Shown: one piece after another, positions 7,941 to 35,912 of the stretch | Layout: the number at the start of each line of letters is the position of its first letter | How positions within the stretch are numbered: the stretch's first letter is position 1 | Virus record (IMG/VR): IMGVR_UViG_2703718793_000014 | Length of the DNA: 37,137 bases | Origin: a virus | Lineage: Duplodnaviria > Heunggongvirae > Uroviricota > Caudoviricetes | Strand: one strand, 5' to 3' | Notes under the pieces: model-generated | The model's database searches: none | Told to the model about the DNA's origin: nothing | Seen by the model: only the letters and a program-made list of their open reading frames with translations | Made by a program: the position numbers and the translations under genes

Positions 7941-7985
7941 AGCGCGCACAAAACAGGCAAAAACGGGATTTCAGAATCCCGTAAA
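7888..7985. repeat. Two 25-bp imperfect direct repeats, each an internal palindrome (AAACGGGAnTnnnGAATCCCGTAAA); candidate parC-like centromere/operator
   Basis: Copies at 7888-7912 and 7961-7985, 73 bp apart, spanning the 3' end of A and the region just upstream of the ParM-like gene. Confidence 0.45.
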
Positions 7986-8016
7986 CGATTAATTAATCAA
8001 CATAAGGAAAAGCGAC

Positions 8017-8976
8017 ATGAAAATTTGTATCGATGACGGCTCCACCAACATCAAGCTGGCATGGACTGAGAACGGCGAACGCCGCAACGCCATCAGCCCG
8101 AACAGCTTCAAGTCGGAATGGTCTGCGCCGTTCGGTGGCACGCAGCCCGCGAACTACATGCTTGATGGCGTGCGCTATGGTTTTGATCCGGTCAGCGATC
8201 GCTTTGTCCAGACGACCGACACGCAATACCAGTACAGCGATGTGAATGTCATTGCCATTCATCACGCGCTGGTCAAATCAGGCATCACACCACAGGAAGT
8301 GGATGTGGTTGTCACCCTGCCACTGAGCGAGTATTTCGACACAAACGCACAGCCGGACATGGCCAACATCAACCGCAAAAAAGCAAACGTCATGCGCCCG
8401 GTGGCGTACCAGAACGGAAAAGCATTCACTATCCGTAACGTACGGGTTATGCCTGAATCCATTCCGGCTGGTTTTAAAGCACTGGCTGACATGAGTCCGT
8501 TTGAATCCCTGCTTATTGTGGATTTAGGCGGAACCACGCTGGATGTGGCAAAGGTTCAGGGGCAACTGGCAGGTATCAGCCAGGTGTTTTGCGATCCACA
8601 CGTAGGCGTTTCTCTGATGGCCAATGCCGTACTGTCGGTGATGGCCACTAACGGTATGCGCACCAGTCACCACATCGCCAATACCATTATCGAACATCGC
8701 CATGATGAAGCCTGGCTGCGCCAGCACATCCACAATGACGCGCATTACGCCAGCCTGATGGCGGTTATTCGTGAAAAGGAAGAAACACTGAAACAACGCG
8801 TGATCCGCGCGCTGGCGGTTTTTTCGGGTTACGGGCGGGTGATGGTTGTCGGTGGCGGGGCGGAGATTGTGGCACCCGCTATCCGCGAAGCCTGCGGAGT
8901 TAATGCGACTTTCATCGCGGACGGGGTGCCACAGTTTGCTCTGGTTAATGGGCTGTACGCAATGGACAAGGAGTAA
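8017..8976 (+). CDS. ParM/StbA-like actin-type segregation ATPase
   Basis: 319 aa; N-terminus MKICIDDGSTNIKLAW, then YSDVNVIAIHHAL, VMPESIPAGF, LLIVDLGGTTLDVA and VMVVGGGAEIV match, block for block, the ParM of plasmid R1 as I recall it (actin-fold phosphate and adenosine motifs). Confidence 0.8.
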   Translation: MKICIDDGSTNIKLAWTENGERRNAISPNSFKSEWSAPFGGTQPANYMLDGVRYGFDPVSDRFVQTTDTQYQYSDVNVIAIHHALVKSGITPQEVDVVVTLPLSEYFDTNAQPDMANINRKKANVMRPVAYQNGKAFTIRNVRVMPESIPAGFKALADMSPFESLLIVDLGGTTLDVAKVQGQLAGISQVFCDPHVGVSLMANAVLSVMATNGMRTSHHIANTIIEHRHDEAWLRQHIHNDAHYASLMAVIREKEETLKQRVIRALAVFSGYGRVMVVGGGAEIVAPAIREACGVNATFIADGVPQFALVNGLYAMDKE

Positions 8977-8980
8977 ACCA

Positions 8981-9292
8981 ATGACGACACCAACCAGACG
9001 GATAAGTTTCTATCTGAAGCCCGCCGCCGTCAAGAACGAAGGCGAAGCATGCGCATGGCTGGACAGCCTTACACCAGAAGCCCGCAAAAGCGGCCAACGC
9101 GTGGCTTTTCTGGCCGGGCTGGCACTTCTGAAAATGAATCCGGCAGAGGCTTACCGACTGGCTGCATGGGCTGACGATGAGACGTTATCAGTGACACAAA
9201 CCAGGACAGAACGCCCCGAGTCACAGCCAGTACCAACCGCACAGATAACCAGTCAGATGGCCGGAAATATCAGGGCGTTATTTCCTGAATAA
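8981..9292 (+). CDS. ParR-like centromere-binding adaptor
   Basis: 103 aa; RRISFYLKP...LDSL...RVAFLAGLALLKMNP...IRALFPE parallels R1 ParR (ribbon-helix-helix N-terminus); AAGGAG Shine-Dalgarno; immediately downstream of the ParM-like gene. Confidence 0.65.
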   Translation: MTTPTRRISFYLKPAAVKNEGEACAWLDSLTPEARKSGQRVAFLAGLALLKMNPAEAYRLAAWADDETLSVTQTRTERPESQPVPTAQITSQMAGNIRALFPE

Positions 9293-9355
9293 CACAACAT
9301 CAGGGCGAGTTCGCCCTGCTCTCCACCTCAGAACATAAACAAGGAGAACGACATA

Positions 9356-9880
9356 ATGAGCGAAATCAACTATCAGGCATTACGTGAGGCAGCACAAAAC
9401 TATCAATCGACGCTGGCGTGGTATGAGGCCATCGCGGATAACCCAAATGCTGAGCAGGATTGTAACGAAGCAGTGGCGGCGTTTAAGCGTCAAATCCGTC
9501 ATCAGGAAATGGACATTATCGCCGAGCTGCTGGAAGAACTGGAAACCAAAGACAACAGGATCGCTGAACTGGAAAAAATCGCCACTGACCATGCACTTAA
9601 ATTCCAGAAAGCACAGGACGCATTAAAGCATGCCGCTTTGCTGCATAGCCGGACGGCGCAACAAACAAATAATTTTGCAGTATCGCTTCCGGACATAAGC
9701 GAATATTTCATTAATGACGTATTTCAGCCCTTGCGATACGAGCGGAATGTTGAAAGAGCCATCATAAAGGCTGGCGGAAAAGCATTGTGGCAGGAGAAAC
9801 ACGAGGACAGAACGCATCAGTCCTGCGATGTAAATTGTGGATGGTTTAGCCCACTGACGACAGATAAAAATAACACCTGA
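9356..9880 (+). CDS. Hypothetical coiled-coil protein (174 aa) in the replication-to-cos cargo island
   Basis: AAGGAG Shine-Dalgarno; N-terminal MSEINYQALREAA and a heptad-like acidic stretch; C-terminal Cys/His cluster HQSCDVNCGW. Function unknown. Confidence 0.55.
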   Translation: MSEINYQALREAAQNYQSTLAWYEAIADNPNAEQDCNEAVAAFKRQIRHQEMDIIAELLEELETKDNRIAELEKIATDHALKFQKAQDALKHAALLHSRTAQQTNNFAVSLPDISEYFINDVFQPLRYERNVERAIIKAGGKALWQEKHEDRTHQSCDVNCGWFSPLTTDKNNT

Positions 9881-9920
9881 TCTCCCTCAAACCAGGGCGA
9901 TAATCGCGCATCGCCCTGCT

Positions 9921-9946
9921 GCACAATAGTGCACAAATTTGCACAA
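9921..9946. repeat. Three GCACAA repeats phased at exactly 10 bp
   Basis: GCACAATAGT GCACAAATTT GCACAA starting at 9921, 9931 and 9941; helical phasing suggests a protein-binding array near the presumed packaging site. Confidence 0.4.
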
Positions 9947-10029
9947 TTTTTTTGAACGACTTTTTACCCTTCAGGCCCGCATGGCGGCTGGATCCGTCAA
10001 GGATCCGTGCATGCACAAAAAAACGCGTT

Positions 10030-10070
10030 TTTTCTGCGCGCAGGTGACGGGGGAACAGCCCGCGTTTCAG
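10030..10070. other. Putative cos (cohesive-end) region
   Basis: Non-coding stretch between the cargo island and portal Q, where P2-like genomes place cos; G-rich motif GGTGACGGGGGAACAGCCCGC loosely resembles P2/186 cohesive-end sequences. The exact site cannot be fixed by eye. Confidence 0.25.
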
Positions 10071-10370
10071 GGGGTAAATAGCATTCCCTGAACGATGTCG
10101 CAGAGATACAACAGAATGGCTGTATTTCTCACGCTGAGCGTGAAAAAGACGTGAGAGCTTTTGATTTGATGGGGTGAAAGGTAAGGCCGTCAAAATCGCA
10201 CTGAGACGGCGAGAACATGCAGTCAACGCGGTGGGATTGCGTAAGAGCCTGACTGTCGATGATGGCAATAAGCAGGAAAGCGTCGTGAAATTATCTGATT
10301 GATACAGGAGCTGGAGAGTCGGGGCATAAATTTTTTATGCCCCGGCGAAGCAGCAGACAAGCGAAGCGCG

Positions 10371-11417
10371 TCAGGATGTGGGCTGGGTGTCTAACAGTGC
10401 GTAAGGGTTAAAGCGGATCACCTCTTCGCCAAGCCAGTCATTGATGAGCTTCATGGCCTCCATGACGGGCATCAGCTCGTTAATTGCGTAAACCCGCGCG
10501 GCCTTCTCCACATCACCAAACGCACTTTTTTCGCCCGGCATCGCCCCCATCAGTTGCGGCGGAACTCGGTGCGCAGCCAGCACATCATCACGGGATGCCG
10601 CCTTAACATTCATGAACTCGTCCTTTGCGGTGATCTGCTGGAACGGCAAAATTTGCACCCCCTCTTTGCCCCCGTTGGGCGCATGGATGAGCACGTTTTT
10701 AAACGCACCACCACCACGCGCACCCTGTAACGTTTCTTTCAGGGAGTCCATGCTTTCGCGGTTTACCTGCGCTGCACCGATGTAGATGATGCACCCGGCG
10801 TGGGATCCATTGTCGTAATACAGTTTTCTGAACATGTCCGCCGAATGAGACAGGCTGGCCGAGAGTAATGCGCCAAGATATTCCGGCATGCCGTAAATTT
10901 CCTGGTTAATGTCCGGATTCATCAGGTGGCACACTTTGCCAGGGCGAAACTGAAACGCGTCCTTACCATCCTGCACATACCACCATGATTCAAGATCGCT
11001 TCCGCGTCGCATGTATTTCGCCAGTGCGTGCCGTAATTTAAGCGGTTCGCCGAGCATATTGCTTCGAAGCTCAAGGAATGCGTTACCGAACACAAACCAG
11101 TCCAGCGCCAGCGCCGAGAAATCCTGCCGGGAAAGCAGCGGGTGCGGGATGTAGCAACCGAGTAATACATTGCGCTTAAAGTAAAGCGCAGACTGATGCC
11201 AGGACGTTTGCCGGGCAGCTCTTGCCAGACCGTACCAGTCCACCGGGGTTTCATACCACCGCCCGTTATCAGCACAGTACATATTGTCCAGCAGGTCATG
11301 CCCGGTCAGGCGATAAGGACCATCAAATGTGAATGCACTGAGCGATGATTCTTTCCTGAGCGCATCAGCGAGATCAATGCGTGAACTCATGCGCACTTTT
11401 TTATTTTTTCTGCTCAT
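10371..11417 (-). CDS. Q: Portal protein (P2 gpQ family)
   Basis: 348 aa; leftward, overlapping the terminase ATPase gene by one base and divergent from the O-N-M-L capsid genes, as in P2; translation consistent with the P2 portal family. Confidence 0.85.
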   Translation of the reverse strand: MSRKNKKVRMSSRIDLADALRKESSLSAFTFDGPYRLTGHDLLDNMYCADNGRWYETPVDWYGLARAARQTSWHQSALYFKRNVLLGCYIPHPLLSRQDFSALALDWFVFGNAFLELRSNMLGEPLKLRHALAKYMRRGSDLESWWYVQDGKDAFQFRPGKVCHLMNPDINQEIYGMPEYLGALLSASLSHSADMFRKLYYDNGSHAGCIIYIGAAQVNRESMDSLKETLQGARGGGAFKNVLIHAPNGGKEGVQILPFQQITAKDEFMNVKAASRDDVLAAHRVPPQLMGAMPGEKSAFGDVEKAARVYAINELMPVMEAMKLINDWLGEEVIRFNPYALLDTQPTS

Positions 11418-21054: not shown

Positions 21055-21577
21055 TTCGTTGTTACCACCATCAGCCAGCAATTTCATGCGTTGTGCCGAA
21101 GCTGTCGGAGCGCGCATTACAAATATCCCGGTAGACCTCAACACGCTGTGGTCGCCGGACACATGCCCGGTGCATCTGCTGCCTTATCTCGCCTGGGCAT
21201 TTTCCGTTGACCGCTGGGATCGCAACTGGCCGGAAGAGACAAAGCGACAGGTGATTCGTGATGCATGGCTGATACACCGACACAAAGGGACCATCAGCGC
21301 ACTGCGCCGGGCCATTGAGCCGCTGGGATACCTCATTCGTGTGTCTGAGTGGTGGGAGTTCGGCGGAGAACCGGGAACATTTACCGTTGAAGTCGGCACG
21401 CTGGACAGTGGCGTGACGGAGGAAATGTATCTGGAAATGGAGCGGTTGATTGCTGATGCCCGCCCGGTCAGCCGCCACATGACAGGGCTGAATATCATTC
21501 AGGAGATCCCGGGGGATATTTTCGCGGCGGCAGCAACTTACGACGGTGAAGTCATTACCATTTATCCGGACGATTAA
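21047..21577 (+). CDS. I: Baseplate/tail-fibre attachment protein I
   Basis: 176 aa from ATG 21047 ([13 protein letters not shown]), overlapping the J stop. Confidence 0.8.
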
Positions 21578-21579
21578 GC

Positions 21580-23739
21580 ATGAGTACCACAACACGAAAA
21601 TTTAAAACCATTATCACTGATACTGGTGCCAAAAAATTAGCTCAGGCAGCCGCGCCAGATGGTAATCCTGTCCGCCTGACTCACATGGCCGTGGGCGACG
21701 GTGGCGGCACGTTGCCCACACCAGACAGTAAGCAGACCCGTCTGGTGCATGAGGTGTGGCGACATACTGTTAATCGCGTCATCCTGGACGCAACACATCA
21801 GAACCGCATTATTGCGGAGCTGGTTATTCCTCCTGAAACGGGCGGATTCTGGATCCGGGAAATTGGTGTATTTGATGAGCACGGCGATTTGATCGCGGTG
21901 GGCAATACTGCCGAAAGTTACAAACCAACCGTTGCCGAAGGATCCGGACGTGCACAAACATTTCGCACCATTCTGACCGTATCCAGCACTGCCACCGTGG
22001 CGCTTACCGTGGATAACACCATGGTTATGGCCACAGTGGATTACGTGAATGACAAACTGAAAGAACATGAACAGTCACGACGTCACCCGGACGCCTCGCT
22101 GACCGCAAAAGGCTTTGTTCAACTCAGTAGCGCCACCAACAGCACGTCTGAAGCACTGGCCGCAACGCCGAAAGCGGTCAAGGCAGCCTATGACCTTGCT
22201 ATCGGGAAATATACCGCACAGGACGCCACTACAGCGCGGAAAGGACTTGTCCAGCTCAGTAGCGCCACCAACAGCGATTCAGAAACGCTGGCGGCAACAC
22301 CAAAGGCGGTAAAGGCAACATATGACCTTGCTAACGGGAAATATACTGCGCAGGATGCCACCACAGCGCGGAAAGGCCTTGTCCAGCTCAGTAGCGCCAC
22401 CAACAGCACGTCTGAAGCACTGGCCGCAACACCGAAAGCGGTAAAGACAGCATATGACCTTGCTAACGGGAAATATACCGCTCAGGACGCTACGACAGCA
22501 CAAAAAGGGATTGTCCAGCTAAGCAGCGCGACTAACAGCACATCTGAAACGCTTGCCGCGACACCGAAAGCAGTGAAAGCAGCTAATGACAATGCGAATG
22601 GTCGGGTACCTTCTGCCCGTAAGGTGAATGGTAAGGCGCTTTCAGCGGATATTACACTGACGCCGAAAGATATTGGTACGCTTAACTCAACAACTATGTC
22701 ATTCAGCGGTGGTGCTGGTTGGTTCAAATTAGCAACGGTAACCATGCCGCAGGCGAGTTCTGTTGTTTCAATTACGTTGATTGGTGGCGCGGGATTTAAC
22801 GTGGAGTCACCTCAACAGGCAGGTATATCTGAACTTGTTCTTCGTGCGGGAAATGGAAATCCAAAAGGTCTTACTGGTGCGTTATGGCGACGGACATCGG
22901 TTGGATTTACTAATTTTGCATGGGTGAATACATCCGGTGATACCTATGATGTTTATGTTGAAATAGGTAATTACGCCACAGGTGTTAATATTCAATGGGA
23001 TTATACCAGTAACGCCAGCGTAACGATTCATACTTCACCAGCATATTCTGCTAATAAGCCGGAAGGATTAACGGACGGTTCTGTTTATTCGCTGTATATT
23101 TCGCCTCATGAACTTTATCCGGTTGGCGCACCGATCCCTTGGCCATCAGATACCGTTCCGTCTGGTTATGCCCTGATGCAGGGGCAGACTTTTGACAAAT
23201 CTGCATACCCGAAACTTGCAGCCGCTTATCCGTCAGGCGTGATCCCTGATATGCGTGGCTGGACGATTAAGGGCAAGCCCGCCAGTGGTCGTGCCGTATT
23301 GTCTCAGGAACAGGACGGCATTAAATCGCACACCCACAGCGCCAGCGTATCCAGTACGGATTTGGGTACGAAAACCACATCGTCGTTTGATTACGGGACG
23401 AAAACAACCTCACTATTTGACTATGGGACCAAAACTACCAGTAACGCCGGGAGTCACACGCATTCAATACCAACATCAGATGGTGCAAACCAGGGGGGGA
23501 AAATTCCACTGACATCTGGGCGTCTGGCAACTCAATATACATCAGCAACAACAGGTTCCTCTGGCTCACATTCTCATACTGTAGGTATTGGTTCTCATCA
23601 GCACACTGTCGGTATTGGTGCACACACGCACTCGGTTGCGATTGGCTCACATGGACACACCATCACCGTTAACGCTGCTGGTAACGCGGAAAACACCGTC
23701 AAAAACATCGCATTTAACTATATTGTGAGGCTTGCATGA
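21580..23739 (+). CDS. H: Tail fibre protein H
   Basis: 719 aa; conserved N-terminal baseplate-attachment region, internal tandem 44-aa repeats, and a C-terminal His-rich tip [34 protein letters not shown]. Confidence 0.9.
22108..22600 (+). repeat. Tandem 132-bp (44-codon) repeats inside H, about 3.7 copies
   Basis: Repeat units start at 22108, 22240, 22372 and 22504; each encodes KG(F/L/I)VQLSSATNS...LAATPKAVK...[17 protein letters not shown] with few substitutions. Confidence 0.85.
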
Positions 23740-24638
23740 TTACGCTCATTCTTTCTGCACCAGTAACAGAAATGGCTGAAGCATTTAAGCGGGTATTTGC
23801 AAACGCAGATAATGTGAATATTGTCGGAAAGCCATTTGAAACAATCAGAGAATTTGACTGTATGGTAAGTGCGGCAAATAGTTTCGGCCTGATGGATGGC
23901 GGTGTTGATGCCGCCATTACCGCATTCTTCGGTACTCAGTTACAGTCCCGCGTTCAGAATCATATTCTTCGTGAATATCTAGGCGAGCAGCCTGTAGGAT
24001 CTGCGTTTGTTATTGAAACGGGGCATAATCATCACCCCTGGCTGGTACATGCGCCAACAATGCGTGTTCCGTTGACAATTGACGGAACAGACGCTGTATA
24101 TAACGCAACCTGGGCCGCTCTGCTTGCCATCTTTCAGCACAATAAAAACGCAACGACAGACAGGAAAATAAAGACGGTGGTATTCCCTGCGATGGGGGCT
24201 GGATGTGGTCAGGTACCGTTTGAAAGTGTTGCCCGCCAGATGAAGCAGGCCTGGGATAACTTTAATAAAAAAACAGAATCAATTAACTGGGAATACGCAC
24301 AATCCCGCCAGTCGGCAGTATTTGGCACATATGCATACTGTCCGGGTAATTCTGTTTGCCGTTATGCGGATGCTAAATATATTGGATGCGGCGATTATCG
24401 GACGTATTGCTCACGTTCCGGGCAGGTCTGTATTAACCCTGAACATCAGGCTGATGATGTACTGATACAACATCAGGCTAATAACCGGTTTCGCCCTGAT
24501 TCGCATATACACCGGATTAATCCAGAAAATCCCGTAGGTAATGTCACCTCTGGCGCACATAGCCACAGAAGTAGCATCGTTATTGGTGCTCACACCCATA
24601 CGCTCAATAAACAATATTCTGTCTCTGATATTAAGTAG
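23736..24638 (+). CDS. Macro-domain protein with tail-fibre-tip-like His-rich C-terminus
   Basis: 300 aa; macro-domain blocks [46 protein letters not shown] and [20 protein letters not shown] align by eye to E. coli YmdB-type macro domains. The C-terminus [20 protein letters not shown] echoes the HxH tip of H. Start overlaps the H stop. Confidence 0.7.
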
Positions 24639-24646
24639 AGGTGAAC

Positions 24647-25225
24647 ATGGATTTCAGAATGAGTGAACAACCACGGACCATAAAAATTTATAATCTGCTG
24701 GCCGGAACTAATGAATTTATTGGTGAAGGTGACGCATACATTCCGCCTCATACAGGTCTGCCAGCAAACAGTACCGATATTGCACCGCCAGATATTCCGG
24801 CTGGCTTCGTGGCTGTTTTCAACAGTAATGAGGCATCGTGGCATCTCGTTGAAGATCATCGGGGTAAAACGGTTTATGACGTGGCTTCCGGCGACGCGTT
24901 ATTTATTTCTGAACTCGGTCCGTTACCGGAAAATGTTACCTGGTTGTCGCCGGATGGAGAGTGTCAGAAGTGGAACGGCACATCCTGGGCGAAAGATGCA
25001 GAAGCAGAAAAACTGTTTCGGGTACGGGAGGCAGAAGAAACAAAAAACAGCCTGATGCAGGTAGCCAGTGAGCATATTGCGCCACTTCAGGATGCCGTAG
25101 ATTTGGATATTGCGACGGAGGAAGAGGCATCGTTACTGGCTGCATGGAAGACATATCGGGTATTGTTGAATCGTGTTGATACAACAGTAGCAGCGGATGT
25201 TGAGTGGCCAGTCGCCCCACAATAA
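24647..25225 (+). CDS. G: Tail fibre assembly chaperone (P2 gpG / Tfa family)
   Basis: 192 aa from ATG 24647 (GAGGT upstream); position after the fibre genes; translation typical of Tfa proteins. Confidence 0.8.
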
Positions 25226-25230
25226 AAAGA

Positions 25231-25260
25231 AAAAGCCATCGACAGAAATATCGATGGCTT
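25231..25260. terminator. Bidirectional terminator hairpin between convergent genes
   Basis: AAAGCCATCGA-(loop)-TCGATGGCTTT with flanking A/T runs; lies between the G stop and the stop of the minus-strand acetyltransferase. Confidence 0.6.
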
Positions 25261-25268
25261 TATGTACT

Positions 25269-25841
25269 CTATTTATACAATACAACACCACTCTTTTTAG
25301 TTATATATGTGCAGTTTGATGGTATATCTTTATTTATAAAAGACATTGCACCTATTTTTACATTATCCCCAATTTTACGTGATAATCCAATGATGCAACA
25401 ATTAGCTCCGATATCAACGTTACTACCAATTTTTACTCTTGAACTAGGCATATCACCATCTATCTGTCCAATGGTAGTATTCTGTCGTAATACCAGATTT
25501 TCACCCGCATCAACAGCAAAATGAACAACAATTCCAGCATGATGGGGAATTGTCAACCCTTTTCCAATATTTGCGCCCAATCCTATTTCACAACCAAACT
25601 TGTTAATTATTTTACTGTTTAACTTTTTGGCTGCTTTCTTATGTAATTTATTACCATTAATATACATTTCGTTAGCCAACCGCCACCAGAAAAGGAAATT
25701 CCGGTTACGCTGCTTTTTCTCTCTTAAAAGCCTCCAGATATCCATACGTTTCCGCCGAATTACTTCATGTTTCCAGAAGTTTTTTAAATTAGTAGAGTTT
25801 CCAAATAAAACAAAGTGAATTGCCATTAAGTAAGATAGCAC
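25269..25841 (-). CDS. Hexapeptide-repeat (left-handed beta-helix) acetyltransferase, CysE/WcaB-like
   Basis: Visibly AT-rich ORF; translation has canonical hexapeptide repeats GLGANIGKGLTIPHHAGIVV...IGSNVDIGANCCIIG...IGDNVKIGAMSFIN. Start chosen at GTG 25841 (AAGGAG 6 nt upstream); the track ORF extends to ATG 25874. Confidence 0.7.
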   Translation of the reverse strand: MLSYLMAIHFVLFGNSTNLKNFWKHEVIRRKRMDIWRLLREKKQRNRNFLFWWRLANEMYINGNKLHKKAAKKLNSKIINKFGCEIGLGANIGKGLTIPHHAGIVVHFAVDAGENLVLRQNTTIGQIDGDMPSSRVKIGSNVDIGANCCIIGLSRKIGDNVKIGAMSFINKDIPSNCTYITKKSGVVLYK

Positions 25842-25997
25842 GATAATCTCCTTAATTATTATTTCAGACCACACATGTTATAAGGTTAAGAGATTATAAA
25901 ATCCTGTTATTTGTTATTCAAAAACAATTTTCTGAGAAGGACATACAACAGCAAGTCGCCAGTCACCTTCATCAGGAAATTGGCGACATACGTTAAA

Positions 25998-26492
25998 TCA
26001 GAGCAGCCCCTTAACTGAGCTGGCCGCGCTATTAAGGGATGATGTCACCTTATCTTTGAAGCCGGACAGCATATCGCTGAACGATGAGGATTGCAGGCGC
26101 TCCCGCAAATCCTCATCACAGCGTTCAAGAGTCAGTGAAAATTCTATCTTTTTCGCCTTACCGTAGCGATCAAACTCGGAGCGGGTCGTATTCGTTCCGG
26201 TCAGGACATACATGCCGTAAATCTGCCCGACGCCATCAATCAAAGGCCAAGGACGTCCTGTATATGCCTGCGTGGTCAACAACGACAGCGACACTTCGCC
26301 ACCAGTAATCTCAGGATAAAGAACACCAGAAAGAACGATGCGATCATCACCTGCACCGATATACTGCCAGCTTGCTGAACGGTTAACGCGTTCATTTTTC
26401 ACATGTCGCCAGCTTTTGTTTTGCTGTAACTGCTGATGCGGCAACGTGCGCAGCTCAAAAACAAACATGCCGTAGATCATCATCATGGCCAT
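25998..26492 (-). CDS. U: Tail protein U (P2 gpU family)
   Basis: 164 aa; last gene of the minus-strand sheath/tube/tape-measure block; gpU-like translation. Confidence 0.8.
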   Translation of the reverse strand: MAMMMIYGMFVFELRTLPHQQLQQNKSWRHVKNERVNRSASWQYIGAGDDRIVLSGVLYPEITGGEVSLSLLTTQAYTGRPWPLIDGVGQIYGMYVLTGTNTTRSEFDRYGKAKKIEFSLTLERCDEDLRERLQSSSFSDMLSGFKDKVTSSLNSAASSVKGLL

Positions 26493-26498
26493 GACTCC

Positions 26499-29342
26499 TC
26501 AATCTTTATCGTAAAAACTGCCACGCCTGGCACGGGCGCGCCGTTCCATTTCTGCCCTGACCATTTCGCCGACCAGTTTCGCCAGTTCGCGGGGATTCTG
26601 CGTAACAACGTTATGCAGATGAACATGAATTTCACCGCCAAATCCGGAGGCAACAGGCTCCCGGTTACGGGAAGTTGCAGGAACTGATGCCACTGGCGAT
26701 CGTATGGCCTCCACCACCGGGCGGGAGCTGGCCGCAACAACAGGGACCAGCGCCGGAGGCAGCGGAGCCGGGACCACGGGTGTGATATTAATTGCGGGGG
26801 CAGGCTTACTGACCTGCGCAATCTTCCGCTCCTGCCACTCCCCACGAACAGCAAGTGCGCGGGGCAGGTTCTTAAAGACAATATCGCCGGGGCCAATGCG
26901 TTTTTTTGTCTCATCAACCAGCTTACCTGTGTTATCAGCAATTTTGCTGAGTCTGCGTAGCGTGCCGGTATTGCTGTCTGTGAGAGGTTTGTTGTCTTTG
27001 GGTTTATCATCTCCGGTGCCATTGCTATTTCCCGCAGACTTCGGCGGATTGATTTTCGCAATGTCTCCCTGAAACAGAGCAACCTTGTCCTGAAGAATGG
27101 CCGCACGTTGTGCGTCTTCGATTTTCTTGCGCGCCCTTTCCGCTTCATCCGGAAGCACACCGAGTTTTTCAAGTATCCACGCCAGCGTATCCAGCAACAT
27201 TTTTGCAGGCGTCAGAACAAGCTGTAACGCACCACCAAGAACGTTACCGAATACCTCGCCAGCACTGGTACATTTATCCAGCGTTTCCTTGCTGGACTCC
27301 ATCGGTGACAGCAGCGATTTAAACCAGTTAAACACCTGGCTGATCCCGCTTCCGATTGCGTCAAAAACAGGGCCAAACCGTTCAAAGGTGTCGCGCAACG
27401 GGGTCAGCCTTTCCATAATCCCGCTGAACACCCCGGCAAAGAAAGCCCTGATAGGATCCCAGTATTTCCAGATAAGAACGGCAGCTCCGGCAAGCGCAGC
27501 CACGATAAGACCAACCGGACTGAACAACGCCCCGATAACGCCTCCCAGTAAAGAAACGGAACCCGTCACCATTCCCCATAGCGCAGGTAACACCCTGACG
27601 ACATTCATTGACCGGGTAAGAATGTCAAAACCAAGACGCAGGGTGGCCAGCTTCCCGTAAAGCACCCCAATAACCAGCGACAACGAGCCAATCGTTGCAG
27701 TCATTGCCAGCAACGCACCGCCTGCTATCAGTAGCTGGCGCGTCAGTACCGGATGGGCCTGCGCCAGCGAGGTGATTTTTTCAAGCACCCGCGTGAGCCA
27801 CTGCGTGACAGAACGCAGCGGACCGTCAACCAGATCACTGATGCGAATACGAAGACCTTCCCATGCGCTGTCGAGATTTTTCAGGTCCCCATCAAGATTA
27901 TCAGCCATTACTTTTGCGACGCGATCGGCCTCTCCCCTTGCCCCCTGCAATTCTCTGGTCAGTTTTTGCAGCTCTCCTGAACCAGCCGCCGCAACAAGCG
28001 TCTGCAAACCAACGAACGCCTCTTCTCCGGCGATGTCCTTGAAGAAGGAGACCTGGTCCACCTGTCCGTATTTTTGTGTCGCCTTATAGAGATCAAGCAG
28101 CACATCCTCCATCGGGCGCATTTTGCCTCTGGCGTCAGCAACTGACACCCCCAGCTCTTTCAGTGCATCAGCCGCAGCTTTTGGCGGTGATGCAAGGCGG
28201 GACAGACTTGCGCGCATGGCCGTGCCAGCATCGCTTCCGCGAAGACCATTATTGGCAAGCATCCCGGCCATGGCCGCCGCTTCTTCAAGACTGATACCAA
28301 GTTTTGCGGCAACCGGACCGGTATACTTCATGGTTTCGCCCAGCGCGCGTAAATCAGTATTGGTCCGGGTAAATGCTGCTGTCAGCGTATCGCCCACCCG
28401 GTCCATTTGATCGGCTGTCAGGTTGAACTGTGTGAGGATATTGGAGCCTATATCAGCCGTCTCGCCGAGTTCGACGCCACCTGCCAGCGCCATATTAAGA
28501 ACACCGGGCAATGCGGCCTGAATGGCCTGCGGAGTAAAACCAGCCATTGCCAGAAAGCTCTGCCCACTGGCGGCATCACTCGCAGTAAACTGTGTTTCAG
28601 AGCCAAGTTTTAACGCCTGCTCACGCAGCGCCTTAAACTGCGGGCTGTTTTTGTCGATTCGCGTCAGTGCCTGAACGCGGGACATCTCTTTGCCGAACCC
28701 GATCGCAGGCTGCAAAAAACGCCCGGCAGCATAGCCGCCCGCCGCTGCCGCACCAATTGCCAGCGCACCACCTGTTTTCAGTTTTCCCGCGGTTTCCTGC
28801 GCGCGCGAATACCGCTCACGCGCCTGCGTTACACGCGCAAGCGCCTGCCGTTCGCGTTCAAGCTGGTTGTTGTATTGTTCGGTGCGTCTGATGGCCTGCT
28901 GAATGGTGTTATCGCTGCCTGTCAGGGAAATGCCGTGGCGTTTCAGCTCTCCGCCAAGTTCCCGCATTTTCTGAATTTCCCGTGTGCGCGATTCATTCAG
29001 GCGTTCAAGCCGGGTGCTTAACTGCTGCATCAGCTTTTGTTGTTTTTCGCTGAGCACTGTACCCGTGCGTTGTAACTGATTAAGGGCGTTAAGCTGGCGT
29101 CGTGCTTTCACGATGCCAGCATCCGCTTTACTGACAGCGTCGCGGGCGCGCTCAAATGATCGCGCCTGACGCTCGAGATTTTTGATCGCCCCCTGCGTTC
29201 GCTGGATGGAGTCACCAAACTGCCCCATCAGGCGGCGTGCGTTTTCGGCAGGTCGGGTCAGCCTGTCAACGGCGCTGAAAGCGACCCGGATATCAAGAGT
29301 CTTCATTGTCTGCATTCCCGCTGCGAAGTGCCGCCCGCTCAC
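26499..29342 (-). CDS. T: Tail tape measure protein T
   Basis: 947 aa; long helical protein with hydrophobic central segments and Ala/Gly-rich repeats; start overlaps the end of the E' frame, as in P2. Confidence 0.9.
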   Translation of the reverse strand: MSGRHFAAGMQTMKTLDIRVAFSAVDRLTRPAENARRLMGQFGDSIQRTQGAIKNLERQARSFERARDAVSKADAGIVKARRQLNALNQLQRTGTVLSEKQQKLMQQLSTRLERLNESRTREIQKMRELGGELKRHGISLTGSDNTIQQAIRRTEQYNNQLERERQALARVTQARERYSRAQETAGKLKTGGALAIGAAAAGGYAAGRFLQPAIGFGKEMSRVQALTRIDKNSPQFKALREQALKLGSETQFTASDAASGQSFLAMAGFTPQAIQAALPGVLNMALAGGVELGETADIGSNILTQFNLTADQMDRVGDTLTAAFTRTNTDLRALGETMKYTGPVAAKLGISLEEAAAMAGMLANNGLRGSDAGTAMRASLSRLASPPKAAADALKELGVSVADARGKMRPMEDVLLDLYKATQKYGQVDQVSFFKDIAGEEAFVGLQTLVAAAGSGELQKLTRELQGARGEADRVAKVMADNLDGDLKNLDSAWEGLRIRISDLVDGPLRSVTQWLTRVLEKITSLAQAHPVLTRQLLIAGGALLAMTATIGSLSLVIGVLYGKLATLRLGFDILTRSMNVVRVLPALWGMVTGSVSLLGGVIGALFSPVGLIVAALAGAAVLIWKYWDPIRAFFAGVFSGIMERLTPLRDTFERFGPVFDAIGSGISQVFNWFKSLLSPMESSKETLDKCTSAGEVFGNVLGGALQLVLTPAKMLLDTLAWILEKLGVLPDEAERARKKIEDAQRAAILQDKVALFQGDIAKINPPKSAGNSNGTGDDKPKDNKPLTDSNTGTLRRLSKIADNTGKLVDETKKRIGPGDIVFKNLPRALAVRGEWQERKIAQVSKPAPAINITPVVPAPLPPALVPVVAASSRPVVEAIRSPVASVPATSRNREPVASGFGGEIHVHLHNVVTQNPRELAKLVGEMVRAEMERRARARRGSFYDKD

Positions 29343-31573: not shown

Positions 31574-31730
31574 AGCTTCAGCCCCTTGTATCCGTTAAAT
31601 GATTCGGCAACAATCATCACCCACCACGCGCGTAATCTCACCCCTGCGCCGTTCTCCCGCCACGGCGACAACAAAAAGCAGTAACCCCCTCCGCACGCAC
31701 ATGCGACCATGCCGCACAGGGAGGGAACAG

Positions 31731-32831
31731 ATGACCGACACCACCATGCAATTGCTCAGTCAGGGCACAGACCACGTGAAAGTGCCGGATTTTGATATTC
31801 TCGCGGAGGGTAAAACGCTGTCAGGCGTGGCAGAGCGCCTGATGAGCCTGTCACTGACCGACAACCGGGGATTTGAGGCGGACCAGCTCACCATCACGCT
31901 GGATGATGCGGATGGTCAGTTGCAGCTACCGCCACGGGGCGCGCGCCTGACGGTTCTCATTGGCTGGAAGGGAGAACCGCTGACAGAAAAAGGCACTTAC
32001 ATTGTTGATGAAATCGCTCACGAAGGACCGCCGGACAGGCTGACTGTTTCAGCCAGAAGCGCAGATTTTCGGGATGAATTTAACGTTAAACGTGAGGTGT
32101 CCTGGCATGATGTGACCGTTGAGCGTGTGGTATCCGCCATCGCTCATCGGTATGGTCTGAAACCACAAATCAGCGAAATGCTGATGGATATCGAAATCGA
32201 CCACGCCGACCAGACCGAAGAAAGCGACATGTCCTTCCTTACGCGCATGGCGGAAATGCTGGGCGCAATCACCACGGTAAAAAGCGGTAATCTGTTATTC
32301 ATCATGCCAGGTGGTGGCGTGAACGCACAGGGCCAGCCGTTGCCCTCGTTCGTCATTACACGCAGCAGCGGCGATCGCCATCAGTTCCGCATTGCTGACC
32401 GCGAGGCGTATACGGGTGTACGCGCCTACTGGCTTGATCTTAATTACGGGAAAAAGAAAAAAGTCAGCGTGAAACGCCGCAAACCGAAAAAGGAGAAAAG
32501 CAGCAGCCGTGAAGGTGACTATATGGAAGGTGCGGAAGGCAACGTGTTTGTGTTACGCAAGACTTATCAGAACGAACAGGCAGCAAGACGCGCAGCGGCG
32601 GCAAAGTGGCAGCAGCTACAACGCGGAGCCGCATCATTCTCCATCACGCTGGCACGTGGTCGTGCAGAACTCTACCCCGAAATGCATGGCACTGTAACAG
32701 GATTTAAAAGCGAGATTGATAATCAGGACTGGATTATTGCAAAAGCCGAGCACACCATTGATAACAGCGGCTTTACCACGCAGCTTGAACTTGAGGCAAA
32801 AATCCCGGAATGGATAGCGGAAACAGAGTGA
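31731..32831 (+). CDS. D: Tail/baseplate hub protein D (late control gene D family)
   Basis: Start at MTDTTMQLL (GGGAGGG upstream); the track ORF begins earlier at 31599; gpD-like translation. Confidence 0.85.
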   Translation: MTDTTMQLLSQGTDHVKVPDFDILAEGKTLSGVAERLMSLSLTDNRGFEADQLTITLDDADGQLQLPPRGARLTVLIGWKGEPLTEKGTYIVDEIAHEGPPDRLTVSARSADFRDEFNVKREVSWHDVTVERVVSAIAHRYGLKPQISEMLMDIEIDHADQTEESDMSFLTRMAEMLGAITTVKSGNLLFIMPGGGVNAQGQPLPSFVITRSSGDRHQFRIADREAYTGVRAYWLDLNYGKKKKVSVKRRKPKKEKSSSREGDYMEGAEGNVFVLRKTYQNEQAARRAAAAKWQQLQRGAASFSITLARGRAELYPEMHGTVTGFKSEIDNQDWIIAKAEHTIDNSGFTTQLELEAKIPEWIAETE

Positions 32832-32995
32832 GCAACTTAAATATATTAACTCGCTTATAGCACTTAACAGTCTGACATCTAGCCTTGTCACAAAAATTGT
32901 AAGCGCCATCATATTCTCTTGACTCAAGATAAGTGACTATGTGATCTTTTATGATGTTACCTCATTTGGGTTAATATATTAAAAGGAGTTGGAAA

Positions 32996-34066
32996 ATGTC
33001 TCTAGTTACCCGCAATGTATTCATTGATACTGAGTTTTTTGTAAAAGCAAACCTGGACTTCAACTCAAAAACTATAAAATCATTTGAAGAACTATGTAGA
33101 AATGATGAGTTCAGGCATATTTCTACAACAATTGTAGTTAAAGAAGTTGAGCGAAAAATCATCGAGCATATACAAGAAGCATTGAAAGGGATTAACAATT
33201 TCCGACGAAAGGCTGTTATCCTCAAAGAATATGAAGATGACAATATTAAAAATCTATTTTGTGAAATTAATGAAACAGACATTCGAGAAAAGGCATTAAG
33301 CGCATTTAATGGTTTCATGGAGGACTCAAACACAACTATTGTAGATATGTCGAAGGTGGACCTCAATGAAGTTATAGACATGTACTTTGATAAAAAAAGC
33401 CCCTTTAGTGCGAAAAAACCTAACGAATTTCGAGACGCCTTCACTCTTTTAGCAATACGTTCCGCGCTAGGAGATAATGAAAAAATTTATGTGGTTTCAG
33501 AAGACCCTGACCTAAAAGGTTACTGTGAAGACAATGATAATTTCATAATTATAGGAGCACTAAACTTACTACTAGATGATTACAACAAACACAATGACGA
33601 AAGAACTGGATTTATAGAACGTTTTTTAGAAAGCAAAAATGAAGAAATCATACAAAAATTAACGGAAGAATTAGAAACTGCTGAAGCTTATAATTCTTCA
33701 ACATGGGAAGACTCAGAGATTGATAGCTTTGAAATTACGAACATAAGCGAATTTGAACCCAAAATAATTCATTTGGATGACGAAAGTTGTCAAATTACTT
33801 TTGATGTTACTGTTAGTTTTAATGTCACTGCCAGCGGACCTGATACCGCAAACGGCTATTATGACAAAGAGGATGGAAAATTTTATACCTTTGACACCGT
33901 ATCTAATCACGAGGAGGAGGAAAAGGATTTTACAGTAGAACTAGAATTATTCTTTGAAATAGACGAAGGCCAGTTTATCAATGATGAGTTTAATTTGCAC
34001 ATAAATGGACTGGATGCTGGTATTGAATTTTGTGTCGATGAAAACTCATGGGAAGACTATAGATAG
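32996..34066 (+). CDS. PIN-like nuclease domain protein with acidic C-terminal domain of unknown function (cargo gene)
   Basis: 356 aa, markedly AT-rich, AAAGGAG Shine-Dalgarno. Ordered PIN hallmarks: VFIDTEFF (first Asp), VVKEVERK (Glu), IVDMSKVD, YVVSEDPDLKGY (Ser-x-Asp-x-Asp). No partner gene visible. Confidence 0.6.
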   Translation: MSLVTRNVFIDTEFFVKANLDFNSKTIKSFEELCRNDEFRHISTTIVVKEVERKIIEHIQEALKGINNFRRKAVILKEYEDDNIKNLFCEINETDIREKALSAFNGFMEDSNTTIVDMSKVDLNEVIDMYFDKKSPFSAKKPNEFRDAFTLLAIRSALGDNEKIYVVSEDPDLKGYCEDNDNFIIIGALNLLLDDYNKHNDERTGFIERFLESKNEEIIQKLTEELETAEAYNSSTWEDSEIDSFEITNISEFEPKIIHLDDESCQITFDVTVSFNVTASGPDTANGYYDKEDGKFYTFDTVSNHEEEEKDFTVELELFFEIDEGQFINDEFNLHINGLDAGIEFCVDENSWEDYR

Positions 34067-34150
34067 CTCCTCACTCAGGGAGGGCTGTCAGTTGGAATCT
34101 GAATTGGGACAACTTAGAATGGTAGCAGCACCACGTTAAGGGAGGTCGCT

Positions 34151-34411
34151 ATGTTCCGTTGTCCGCTTTGTGGCGCATCTGCCCGTATCCGCACCAGTCG
34201 TCCGGAAAATGATTCAAACACCGTGCGGCAAAAGTATTACCAGTGTAACAATCTGGAATGCGGCGTATGCTTCTCAACACTGGAAGCTTTCCATAAATTC
34301 ACATCAAAACACGCCTCCGGCGTTCACTCTTCAGAAGGTATCCCGTGGCATGAACTGCCAGCTTCACACAGGGGAAACAATCAGATGAGTTTGCCTTTAC
34401 CTCAGAATTAA
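34151..34411 (+). CDS. ogr: Ogr/Delta-type zinc-finger late transcription activator
   Basis: N-terminus MFRCPLCGASARIRTSR...YYQCNNLECGVCF has the Cys-x2-Cys...Cys-x4-Cys pattern and spacing of P2 Ogr. Confidence 0.85.
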   Translation: MFRCPLCGASARIRTSRPENDSNTVRQKYYQCNNLECGVCFSTLEAFHKFTSKHASGVHSSEGIPWHELPASHRGNNQMSLPLPQN

Positions 34412-34602
34412 CAGGCAGAATTGCCGGAGCAACAAAAAAGCGATAGATTACGCGCGGGTGCCTTTCGGCTGATGGTCGGAGGGAATACCCGAAGGCCAGA
34501 TGTGGAAAGGCCCCGGAAAACATTTCTGTTTAACCGAGGCCCTAACATATCTACCTTAAGCAAGTGATAGGTTAGCGCCTCTCCAACAAAGGAGCAAGCG
34601 CT

Positions 34603-34743
34603 ATGTCGCAAAAATCGCTTACGGCCATCACGTTCTGCGTGACCGTAATCCTCATCATCTGGATGCTGCACGGTTCGCTGTGTGAAATACGGATGAGCTT
34701 CTGGGGAGCGGAGTTTGCGGCGTTCTTACAGTGTAAGCAGTAA
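34603..34743 (+). CDS. Hok/Gef-family type I toxin (46 aa)
   Basis: AAAGGAG Shine-Dalgarno; translation MSQKSLTAITFCVTVILIIWMLHGSLCEIRMSFWGAEFAAFLQCKQ has the Hok architecture: N-terminal TM helix, SLCEIR motif, E(F/V)AAF(L/M) motif. Below the size cutoff of the ORF track. Confidence 0.65.
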   Translation: MSQKSLTAITFCVTVILIIWMLHGSLCEIRMSFWGAEFAAFLQCKQ

Positions 34744-34866: not shown

Positions 34867-34978
34867 TATCCCCATCCATAAGCAATAGGCATAACAGATC
34901 GATGCAATAAATCCGATCGATAAAAACGATCGATTTGTTATCATATCGGCAGCAGTAACCACACAAGAGGTGCCGCAA

Positions 34979-35176
34979 ATGACGCAAAATGTACGATGCA
35001 AAAATTGCAACAAACTACTTGCCCGCGCCTCATTTCACTACATTGAAATAAAATGTCCGCGCTGCAAAACACTTAACCAGATAACGAGAGCCATCGAGCC
35101 CCCCACACACATGAGGAGTTATGACCGTGGGGATCGCAATCCAGCACCAACCAGCACATACACCGGAACACACTAA
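34979..35176 (+). CDS. com: Mu Com-like zinc-finger translational regulator
   Basis: N-terminus MTQNVRCKNCNKLLARASFHYIEIKCPRCK is near-identical in pattern to Mu Com (RCKNCNKLL...HIEIRCPRCK); its 3' end overlaps the start of the downstream methyltransferase frame. Confidence 0.8.
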   Translation: MTQNVRCKNCNKLLARASFHYIEIKCPRCKTLNQITRAIEPPTHMRSYDRGDRNPAPTSTYTGTH

Positions 35177-35912
35177 GGTTTATCAGACTGACAATGCCAT
35201 GCTCTGTCGTGGGAATGCGCTGGAAATATTGCCGCTGATTGAGCCAGAAAGCATTGATGCCTTAATCACTGACCCGCCTTACAGTTCGGGGGCGACACAC
35301 AAGGCCGGACGCACCAACCAGGGCAGCCATGCAAAATATCTGAACGGCGAGAACCTTCACCGCTTTGATGGGTTCGCGGGTGAAAACATGGACGCCCGTT
35401 CGTGGGCTTACTGAACACAATTATGGATGGCACAGGCACACCGCGCAGTCAGGCCGGGCGGTTATGCCCTGGTATTTACTGACTGGCGACAACTACCAGC
35501 TTTAACCGATGCGTTTCAGGCCAGTGGCTTTACATGGCGCGGCATTATTGCGTGGAACAAAGGGAGGGGGTCACGAACACCACATACCGGGTATTTCCGG
35601 CATCAGTGCGAATACATCGTCTGGGGCAGCAAAGGCCATTTAGATAAATCGCCTTCGGGACCGTTCGACGGCTGCATGACGTTCCCGGTTATCCCGTCAA
35701 AGAAAATGCACCCGACCGGAAAACCAGAAGAACTAATGGCGGAACTGGTCAGGACTGTGAATAGTGGCGGAACAGTCCTTGATCCTTTTATGGGGTCAGG
35801 GACAACGGGTGTGGCTGCACTGAAAGCAGGACGCAAATTTATTGGTATAGAAACCAGTGATCATTATTTTGATGTAGCAACACAACGGCTCAAAACGGCG
35901 ATCGAACCATAA
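35121..35912 (+). pseudogene. Beta-class N6-adenine DNA methyltransferase interrupted by a single in-frame TGA (35412-35414)
   Basis: Motif IV ALITDPPYSSG in the upstream segment and motif I LDPFMGSGTTGVAA in the downstream segment are in the same reading frame, separated by one TGA; motif order IV then I indicates beta class. Start uncertain (35121 or internal ATG 35199). Confidence 0.6.

Follow-up and report, generated by a model that had tools for sequence, protein, structure and literature searches.

Proteins of the PIN superfamily share a fold with 4–5 acidic metal-binding residues, and the family DUF4935 was placed within its VapC group as usually monocistronic proteins with an uncharacterized α/β region at the C terminus and no assigned function (Matelska et al. 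2017). The family, now PIN_12 (PF16289) in Pfam, and its PIN nature were thus already known in 2017, and one of its members is anti-phage. This member, Cosus, is encoded as a single gene with a “PIN12” domain by the integron cassette brc24/gcu24 (Kieffer et al., bioRxiv 10.1101/2024.07.02.601719). Against T7, Cosus confers complete resistance whether the MOI is high or low, and at high MOI it appears to spare the cell; its fitness cost is 11%, and introduction into Pseudomonas aeruginosa PAO1 needed a weaker promoter (bioRxiv 10.1101/2024.07.02.601719). Among 11 mutants, including D153A and D177A, strong loss was reported only for T12A, D14A, and D96A, which lowered protection >1e5-fold with ~100-fold still left; in the same preprint, protection is the phenotype, and the nuclease activity is putative. 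A text search for further papers on Cosus returned DOI-string artefacts only, and no solved structure of any PIN_12 member came up when the PDB was searched by sequence with the family profile.

The second point of reference is the set of cargo hotspots in P2-like phages. Those named so far are gpA–gpQ, int–att, int–primase, and tail-gene regions, and the junction between D and ogr is absent from this set (Rousset et al. 2022, PMC9122126; NAR 2026, PMC13586616). In the freely accessible P2 literature, we found no report of D–ogr as a hotspot.

The window, by which we mean the whole stretch of 37,137 nucleotides that was analyzed, holds a complete P88-like prophage of the P2 family, from int (4–1005) through to chromosomal flk. 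Comparison with E. coli O145 RM8988 places the prophage between pdxB and flk, and the two ogr genes are 100% identical. The features at and around the D–ogr junction are as follows.

31599–32831, + strand: gpD, tail/baseplate hub and late gene, left flank of the slot (Pfam Phage_GPD).
32833–32841, + strand: left copy of an imperfect direct repeat, CAACTTAAA, at the cassette boundary (alignment).
32842–34109, no strand: inserted cargo cassette of ~1.27 kb (alignment with the empty site and five other occupied sites).
32837–32850 and 32970–32983, no strand: left and right arms of a 14-nt inverted repeat (repeat search).
32885–32912, + strand: weak σ70-like promoter candidate TTGTCA-16-CATCAT, 9/12, inside the cassette and upstream of the PIN_12 gene (consensus scan).
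32983–32988, + strand: Shine-Dalgarno sequence AAGGAG (sequence).
32996–34066, + strand: coding sequence of a two-domain PIN_12/DUF4935-family protein (Cosus-like), 356 aa with an ATG start (ORF; Pfam).
33017–33553, + strand: N-terminal VapC-type PIN nuclease domain, residues ~8–186, with conserved D11, T12, E50, E144, D147, S168, D170, and D172.
33554–34030, + strand: C-terminal domain, residues ~187–345, three helices and a curved antiparallel sheet.
34086–34125, + strand: right-end segment conserved among different cargos (alignment).
34092–34120, + strand: promoter-like TTGGAA-17-TAGAAT carried by this segment, just upstream of ogr (consensus scan).
34110–34118, + strand: right copy of the direct repeat, CAACTTAGA, degenerate in other cargo types (alignment).
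34151–34411, + strand: ogr, late-gene activator zinc finger, right flank of the slot (Pfam Ogr_Delta).

A sequence-only reading of this DNA had proposed an AT-rich open reading frame with its own ribosome-binding site and no antitoxin partner. The ORF was found exactly as claimed, with an ATG and 356 codons, and the AAGGAG Shine-Dalgarno sequence lies 7 nt before the start. The gene has a GC content of 0.34 (GC3 0.29) against 0.53 in its 6-kb flanks; along the gene, the values run from 0.31 to 0.35, compared with 0.50–0.59 in gpD and 0.49–0.52 around ogr. This composition is kept in every host, the PIN_12 gene having a GC content of 0.34–0.42 with flanks of up to 0.56. An ORF of 356 codons in 34%-GC DNA, together with hundreds of full-length homologs, is far beyond chance. 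No antitoxin-like ORF is present in the cassette, and the orthologs have no conserved neighbor. We also rejected the idea of an RNA antitoxin, since the cassette gives no Rfam match and holds no repeat array. Upstream of the gene, the arms of the inverted repeat are 93% complementary, lie 119 nt apart, and flank the upstream region; the right arm contains the palindrome TTAATATATTAA beside the Shine-Dalgarno sequence, and the repeat with its palindrome could be an operator or an RNA structure. The promoter consensus scan of the region returned 8 sites against 5.1 expected by chance, and a match of this kind is in itself no sign of function.

The protein matches the PIN_12 model with residues 8–172 over model positions 1–171 of 172, i.e. 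over the whole model, at 74.7 bits, well above the curated gathering cut-off of 32 bits. The PIN fold suspected from the sequence was confirmed, and fold comparison places the N-terminal domain closest to the VapC toxins. The domain assumes the α/β/α fold of PIN proteins with conserved acidic metal-binding residues and, as described for PIN_12, belongs to a monocistronic 356-aa protein with an extra α/β region at the C terminus. For this C-terminal domain, we tentatively assign an NTF2-like fold; the assignment, with the conserved acidic patch described below, is apparently new and likewise tentative. PADLOC 2.0, NCBIfam, and PHROGs gave no useful match to the 356-aa protein; PADLOC-DB 2.0.0 (2023) predates Cosus. 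A homolog search yielded 109 full-length homologs of 354–365 aa with 38–99% identity, in Enterobacterales, Pseudomonas, Xanthomonas, Acinetobacter, Variovorax, and one cyanobacterium. An exhaustive profile search recovered 3,811 representative clusters (50% identity) at E ≤ 1e-3 and 710 at E ≤ 1e-30; the best 150 of the 3,811 representatives are mostly ~350 aa long and align nearly end to end.

Residue conservation was read from 135 diverse family members that are 21–42% identical to the window protein. D11 and E50 are present in 100% of them, D147 and D170 in 99%, E144 in 98%, T12 in 95%, and D172 in 87%. The four acidic motifs named in the sequence-only reading stand in three cases, FIDTEF (D11), VVKEVERK (E50), and VVSEDPDL (D170/D172) being invariant; the third motif, IVDMSKVD, does not hold, as its D117 is an aspartate in only 21% of the 135 members. 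The family instead keeps its third acidic site invariant at E144/D147, within the motif K-x2-E-F-x-D-A, whereas D117 lies just after strand 3. In VapC toxins, the third acidic residue is located after strand 3. The acidic active site composed of D11, E50, E144/D147, and D170/D172 is thus fully conserved, and the protein is a predicted nuclease. The C-terminal domain carries a conserved patch of its own in the same set, formed by D283 (89%), Y/W289 (90%), D290 (96%), and E292 (92%).

We compared the window protein with Cosus, for which we used the intact 382-aa ORF of IncC plasmid pKAZ2 (ALG87191.1); the sequence copy in the preprint supplement is OCR-damaged. Cosus itself matches the PIN_12 model with 126 bits. 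Pairwise BLASTP aligns the two proteins with 27% identity over residues 22–200 (E 1e-13), and profile–profile alignment with hhalign extends the homology over both domains. The two family alignments match with 99.3% probability (E 2.7e-20, 288 columns), and a profile of the 135 sequences matches over full length with 99.8% (E 1.4e-28, 303 columns). The PIN half alone reaches 98.7%. With the broad profile, the C-terminal helices and sheet alone reach 92.5% (E 4.8e-7) and the sheet alone 81.8%; with the narrow profile, the sheet alone reaches 27%.

Both proteins match PIN_12 end to end and have the same two-domain architecture and order of secondary structure elements, as well as the motifs FIDT/ITIDN, KKxNEFxDA, and VSxD. 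Like Cosus, the window gene is monocistronic, AT-rich, and located on a mobile element. D14 of Cosus corresponds to the invariant D11, and D153 and D177 correspond to the invariant D147 and D170. In contrast, T12 of Cosus aligns with F9 of the window protein and is not conserved, and D96 falls on E90, within an insert whose alignment is weak. The two proteins further differ in length (382 versus 356 aa), and their PIN halves are ∼27% identical, their C-terminal halves <20%. They fall into separate clades, neither of which was listed in the word-seeded homology search of the other, and the carrier of Cosus is an attC cassette of a mobile integron, whereas that of the window gene is a phage slot. 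In some members of the Cosus clade (P0205, P0209, P0215, and P0222, 462–467 aa), a cold-shock domain (PF00313) at the N terminus is fused to PIN_12, which is consistent with a single-stranded nucleic acid as substrate or trigger.

Compared with VapC toxins, which are single-domain proteins of ∼130–150 aa, the 356-aa window protein has long helical inserts and the extra C-terminal domain, and the third canonical acidic position is not conserved, the family-specific E144/D147 being invariant instead. The gene also differs from VapBC in the lack of a VapB, with no ORF in either the 164-bp upstream or the 84-bp downstream spacer. Neither of the two marks of VapBC, an adjacent co-transcribed VapB and a single-domain PIN protein, was therefore found for the window protein. 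A type III toxin–antitoxin or Abi system of the ToxIN kind does not fit either, as the repeat search of 32780–34200 found no tandem or direct repeat array and the cassette has no Rfam match.

Related E. coli prophages normally have a spacer of 42 bp between D and ogr, in line with the direct succession of the two genes that the sequence-only reading had given for P2, and here ∼1.27 kb is added. Among 5,426 complete E. coli genomes, 16 carry the PIN_12 gene, all with 99.6–99.7% identity, and the full D–PIN–ogr arrangement is found in these same 16 only; flanking D and/or ogr sequence occurs in 1,202. In an evenly spaced sample of 60 records from these 1,202 genomes, D directly adjoins ogr in 34 (span ∼843 bp, with a 42-bp spacer in the example examined), and about one-sixth carry a different insert of 1–1.4 kb. 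The alternative inserts hold one gene each, on either strand; in four of the six cargo types examined, the gene lies on the strand opposite to D and ogr. Besides the PIN_12 gene, the cargo comprises the following proteins.

TIR/SEFIR protein in another E. coli prophage (PADLOC bSEFIR model, E 1.4e-44).
DUF3800 protein of 389 aa in another E. coli prophage.
340-aa protein with a weak HEPN_RiboL-PSP match in another E. coli prophage.
221-aa protein, no family named, in EPEC E2348/69.
384-aa protein, no family named, in another E. coli prophage.

The junction is accordingly a variable cargo site, as the sequence-only reading had suggested might be found, with at least seven states: empty, PIN_12, bSEFIR, DUF3800, HEPN-like, and two proteins without known family. 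The DUF3800, HEPN-like, 221-aa, and 384-aa proteins are uncharacterized defence candidates.

Similar to the P2 hotspots gpA–gpQ (“tin/old”) and the tail-gene site “Z/fun”, D–ogr is a short variable region between conserved phage genes, and its unrelated cargo, swapped rapidly among near-identical phages, includes a known defence gene, bSEFIR. In contrast to these hotspots, D–ogr accepts one gene at once, is mostly empty, and has common cassette ends. The bSEFIR protein, found at D–ogr in other prophages, resembles the window protein in combining an effector domain and a non-catalytic domain in one polypeptide; the effector is a TIR/SEFIR domain there and a PIN nuclease domain here.

According to the alignment, unrelated cargos have common ends, short on the left and ∼45 bp long on the right, and the empty site holds one repeat copy, CAACTTAGA. 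The two flanking 9-mers do not match perfectly, other cargo types have a degenerate version, and a diverged lineage (L074) lacks the repeat. On these alignments, it is therefore better read as an old junction retained around swapped cargo than as a fresh target-site duplication. Through the promoter-like sequence at its right end, the cassette may bring in a promoter for ogr or replace the resident one. Transcription of ogr was seen under every condition tested in a Salmonella P2-like lysogen (PMC7067206). The D–ogr junction as a single-gene cargo slot with common cassette ends appears to be new.

In all contexts examined, PIN_12 orthologs are solitary and located on mobile elements. A Serratia ortholog with 79% identity sits beside Lamassu-like genes in the remnant of a P2-like phage, flanked by gpA fragments and portal/terminase; a Pseudomonas ortholog lies beside TIR-domain genes, Yersinia orthologs lie on elements that also carry MazEF, and an E. 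coli paralog (45% identical) resides on an ICE-like element. In Serratia marcescens (L011–L013), the degraded remnant, with fragments of gpA, portal, and terminase and with ogr in L012 and L013, keeps the PIN_12 ortholog and looks like defence cargo outliving its own phage; the Lamassu-like operon in these records consists of CTD7, MC3, and AAA_23/LmuB_C. Of 42 matching plasmid records, 30 are typed as conjugative. Plasmids of E. coli, Salmonella, and Shigella widely carry a shorter PIN_12 relative (∼256 aa, 31% identity to residues 1–250).

On IMG/VR viral contigs, we found 71 PIN_12 loci, which were placed by probing with the proteins of the window prophage itself. About 19 lie directly beside the portal gene, at the gpA–gpQ hotspot; three occupy the gpS–gpV interval, the position also seen in Enterobacter phage ENT4; one lies between the tail-fibre region and FI, one beside int, and four between D and ogr. 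One of these four is L074, with backbone proteins 35–47% identical to those of the window prophage. The PIN_12 family thus appears to occupy every known P2-like cargo hotspot, apparently a new finding, although PIN_12 proteins are present among the gpA–gpQ arrangements of Table S5A, and absent from the main text, of Rousset et al. (PMC9122126).

Immediately downstream of ogr, the window contains a hok/sok-type module (34456–34743), and such a module also lies beside ogr in prophages whose D–ogr site is empty or holds other cargo. The features between ogr and flk are as follows.

34456–34613: antitoxin RNA of the sok kind (Rfam RF01794; E 5e-9; 47.9 bits, short of the gathering score of 59).
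34603–34743: Hok/Gef ORF of 46 aa, its start overlapped by the sok-like RNA.
34970–35176: Com-like zinc-finger ORF.
35121–35912: DNA methyltransferase, after the Com-like ORF.

The methyltransferase contains a nonsense codon (W98 to stop, 35412–35414), the copy in E. coli O145 RM8988 is intact, and the gene is probably a recently inactivated cargo gene. The gpA–gpQ hotspot of the window (7938–10382) begins with ParM (8017–8973), matching the partition genes reported at this site in about one-quarter of P2-like phages (Rousset et al., PMC9122126). In the RM8988 prophage, which is near-identical to that of the window, the genes at gpA–gpQ code for ParM, a partition protein, a ClpX-type zinc-finger protein, and hypothetical proteins, and no defence system was recognized among them. 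The RM8988 prophage (L021) carries at 22787–27632, homologous to window ∼21575–26000, a frameshifted tail-fibre gene, oppositely oriented tail-fibre/assembly genes, and a “recombinase family” gene; read from RM8988 rather than from the window, this suggests an invertible host-range segment.

Taken together, we favor, with somewhat better than even confidence, the explanation that the gene is cargo of a P88/P2-like prophage and encodes a stand-alone anti-phage protein of PIN_12, the family that includes Cosus, an infection-triggered nuclease. The single-gene defence function proposed from the sequence draws support from the homology to Cosus over both domains, the mobile contexts, and the known defence gene in the slot, and by sequence comparison the protein is a probable, predicted Cosus-like anti-phage nuclease. 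In the mechanism that we envisage, the lysogen would express the protein from the gene's own signals, for which the direct support is one weak promoter match, and the protein would be held inactive or nearly so. The C-terminal, putatively NTF2-like domain would serve as a sensing, regulatory, and/or oligomerization module. Infection by a competing phage would then release the PIN nuclease, which would depend on Mg2+ and, like VapC toxins, most likely be an RNase; it would cut phage or essential host RNA and thereby block the invader and protect host and prophage. The outcome could be either cell-sparing, as for Cosus, or abortive.

A wider version of this explanation, which we regard as doubtful, makes D–ogr an unrecognized, dedicated slot for single-gene cassettes with site-directed, integron-like exchange, cargo coupled to ogr expression, and PIN_12 as a self-contained sensor-nuclease. 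It builds on the core repeat CAACTTA(G/A)A, the ∼45-bp right end, and the cassette size of ∼1–1.4 kb; the putatively NTF2-like domain may here recognize a phage-derived ligand or protein via the D283/Y289/D290/E292 patch. The fold of the PIN domain, closest to VapC toxins, also brings to mind an addiction module, a toxin restrained in cis by the C-terminal domain or by a labile state that penalizes loss of the prophage. The 11% fitness cost of Cosus and its dependence on a weaker promoter in PAO1 agree with a toxic protein, hok/sok, a classic post-segregational killer, sits at the same prophage end, and relatives lie near MazEF on Yersinia elements. However, a single polypeptide has no obvious way to sense the loss of its own gene, the cassette is without antitoxin gene or RNA and without a conserved neighbor, an integrated prophage would gain little, and the nearest characterized relative, Cosus, is anti-phage, so that we consider addiction improbable.

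The same low likelihood attaches to a role in the lytic cycle or in counter-defence, in which late co-transcription with the tail operon through to ogr would yield a nuclease that degrades host RNAs or the RNA components of host or satellite defences. The gene is co-directional with D and ogr, and no intrinsic terminator separates them; RNA is a target of PIN nucleases in many systems, and in P2, transcription from the late FETUD promoter also extends into ogr. Against such a role, the gene is absent from ∼99% of related E. coli prophages (16 of the 1,202 genomes with D/ogr carry it), four of the six cargo types examined at D–ogr are encoded in the reverse direction, the ortholog in ENT4 runs antisense to tail genes, and homologs occur on plasmids, integrons, and the ICE-like element, where a lytic role would be senseless. 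The conjugative plasmids and the ICE-like element would instead suit a factor for competition with plasmids or other non-phage elements, or a stress-response RNase that benefits the host, but phage resistance is the only known phenotype of the family and the reported anti-plasmid test concerned a different protein, Brc128 (bioRxiv 10.1101/2024.07.02.601719); we rate this as very unlikely. Least of all do we expect the gene to be decaying, to be a passenger without function, or to serve as a structural component in the phage lineage. Decay is seen next door in the nonsense mutation of the com-methyltransferase cargo, which is nothing specific to the PIN_12 gene, whereas the PIN_12 ORF is intact and nearly identical across the 16 E. 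coli genomes, with all catalytic and C-terminal motifs conserved. A structural gene is ruled out by the absence from almost all relatives and the occurrence at different sites; conservation and distribution thus largely refute this last explanation.

The window gene is, most likely, another phage-carried defence gene and not something new in kind. If confirmed, the stand-alone anti-phage function would extend Cosus-type one-gene PIN defence from integron cassettes to temperate phages, and one large family of >3,800 clusters would circulate via every P2-like cargo slot, plasmids, and ICE-like elements. The gene would also provide a tractable E. coli example for the silencing and triggering of an antitoxin-free PIN nuclease. 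Finally, D–ogr would join the map of P2 defence hotspots, with the DUF3800, HEPN-like, and two uncharacterized proteins as further single-gene candidates.
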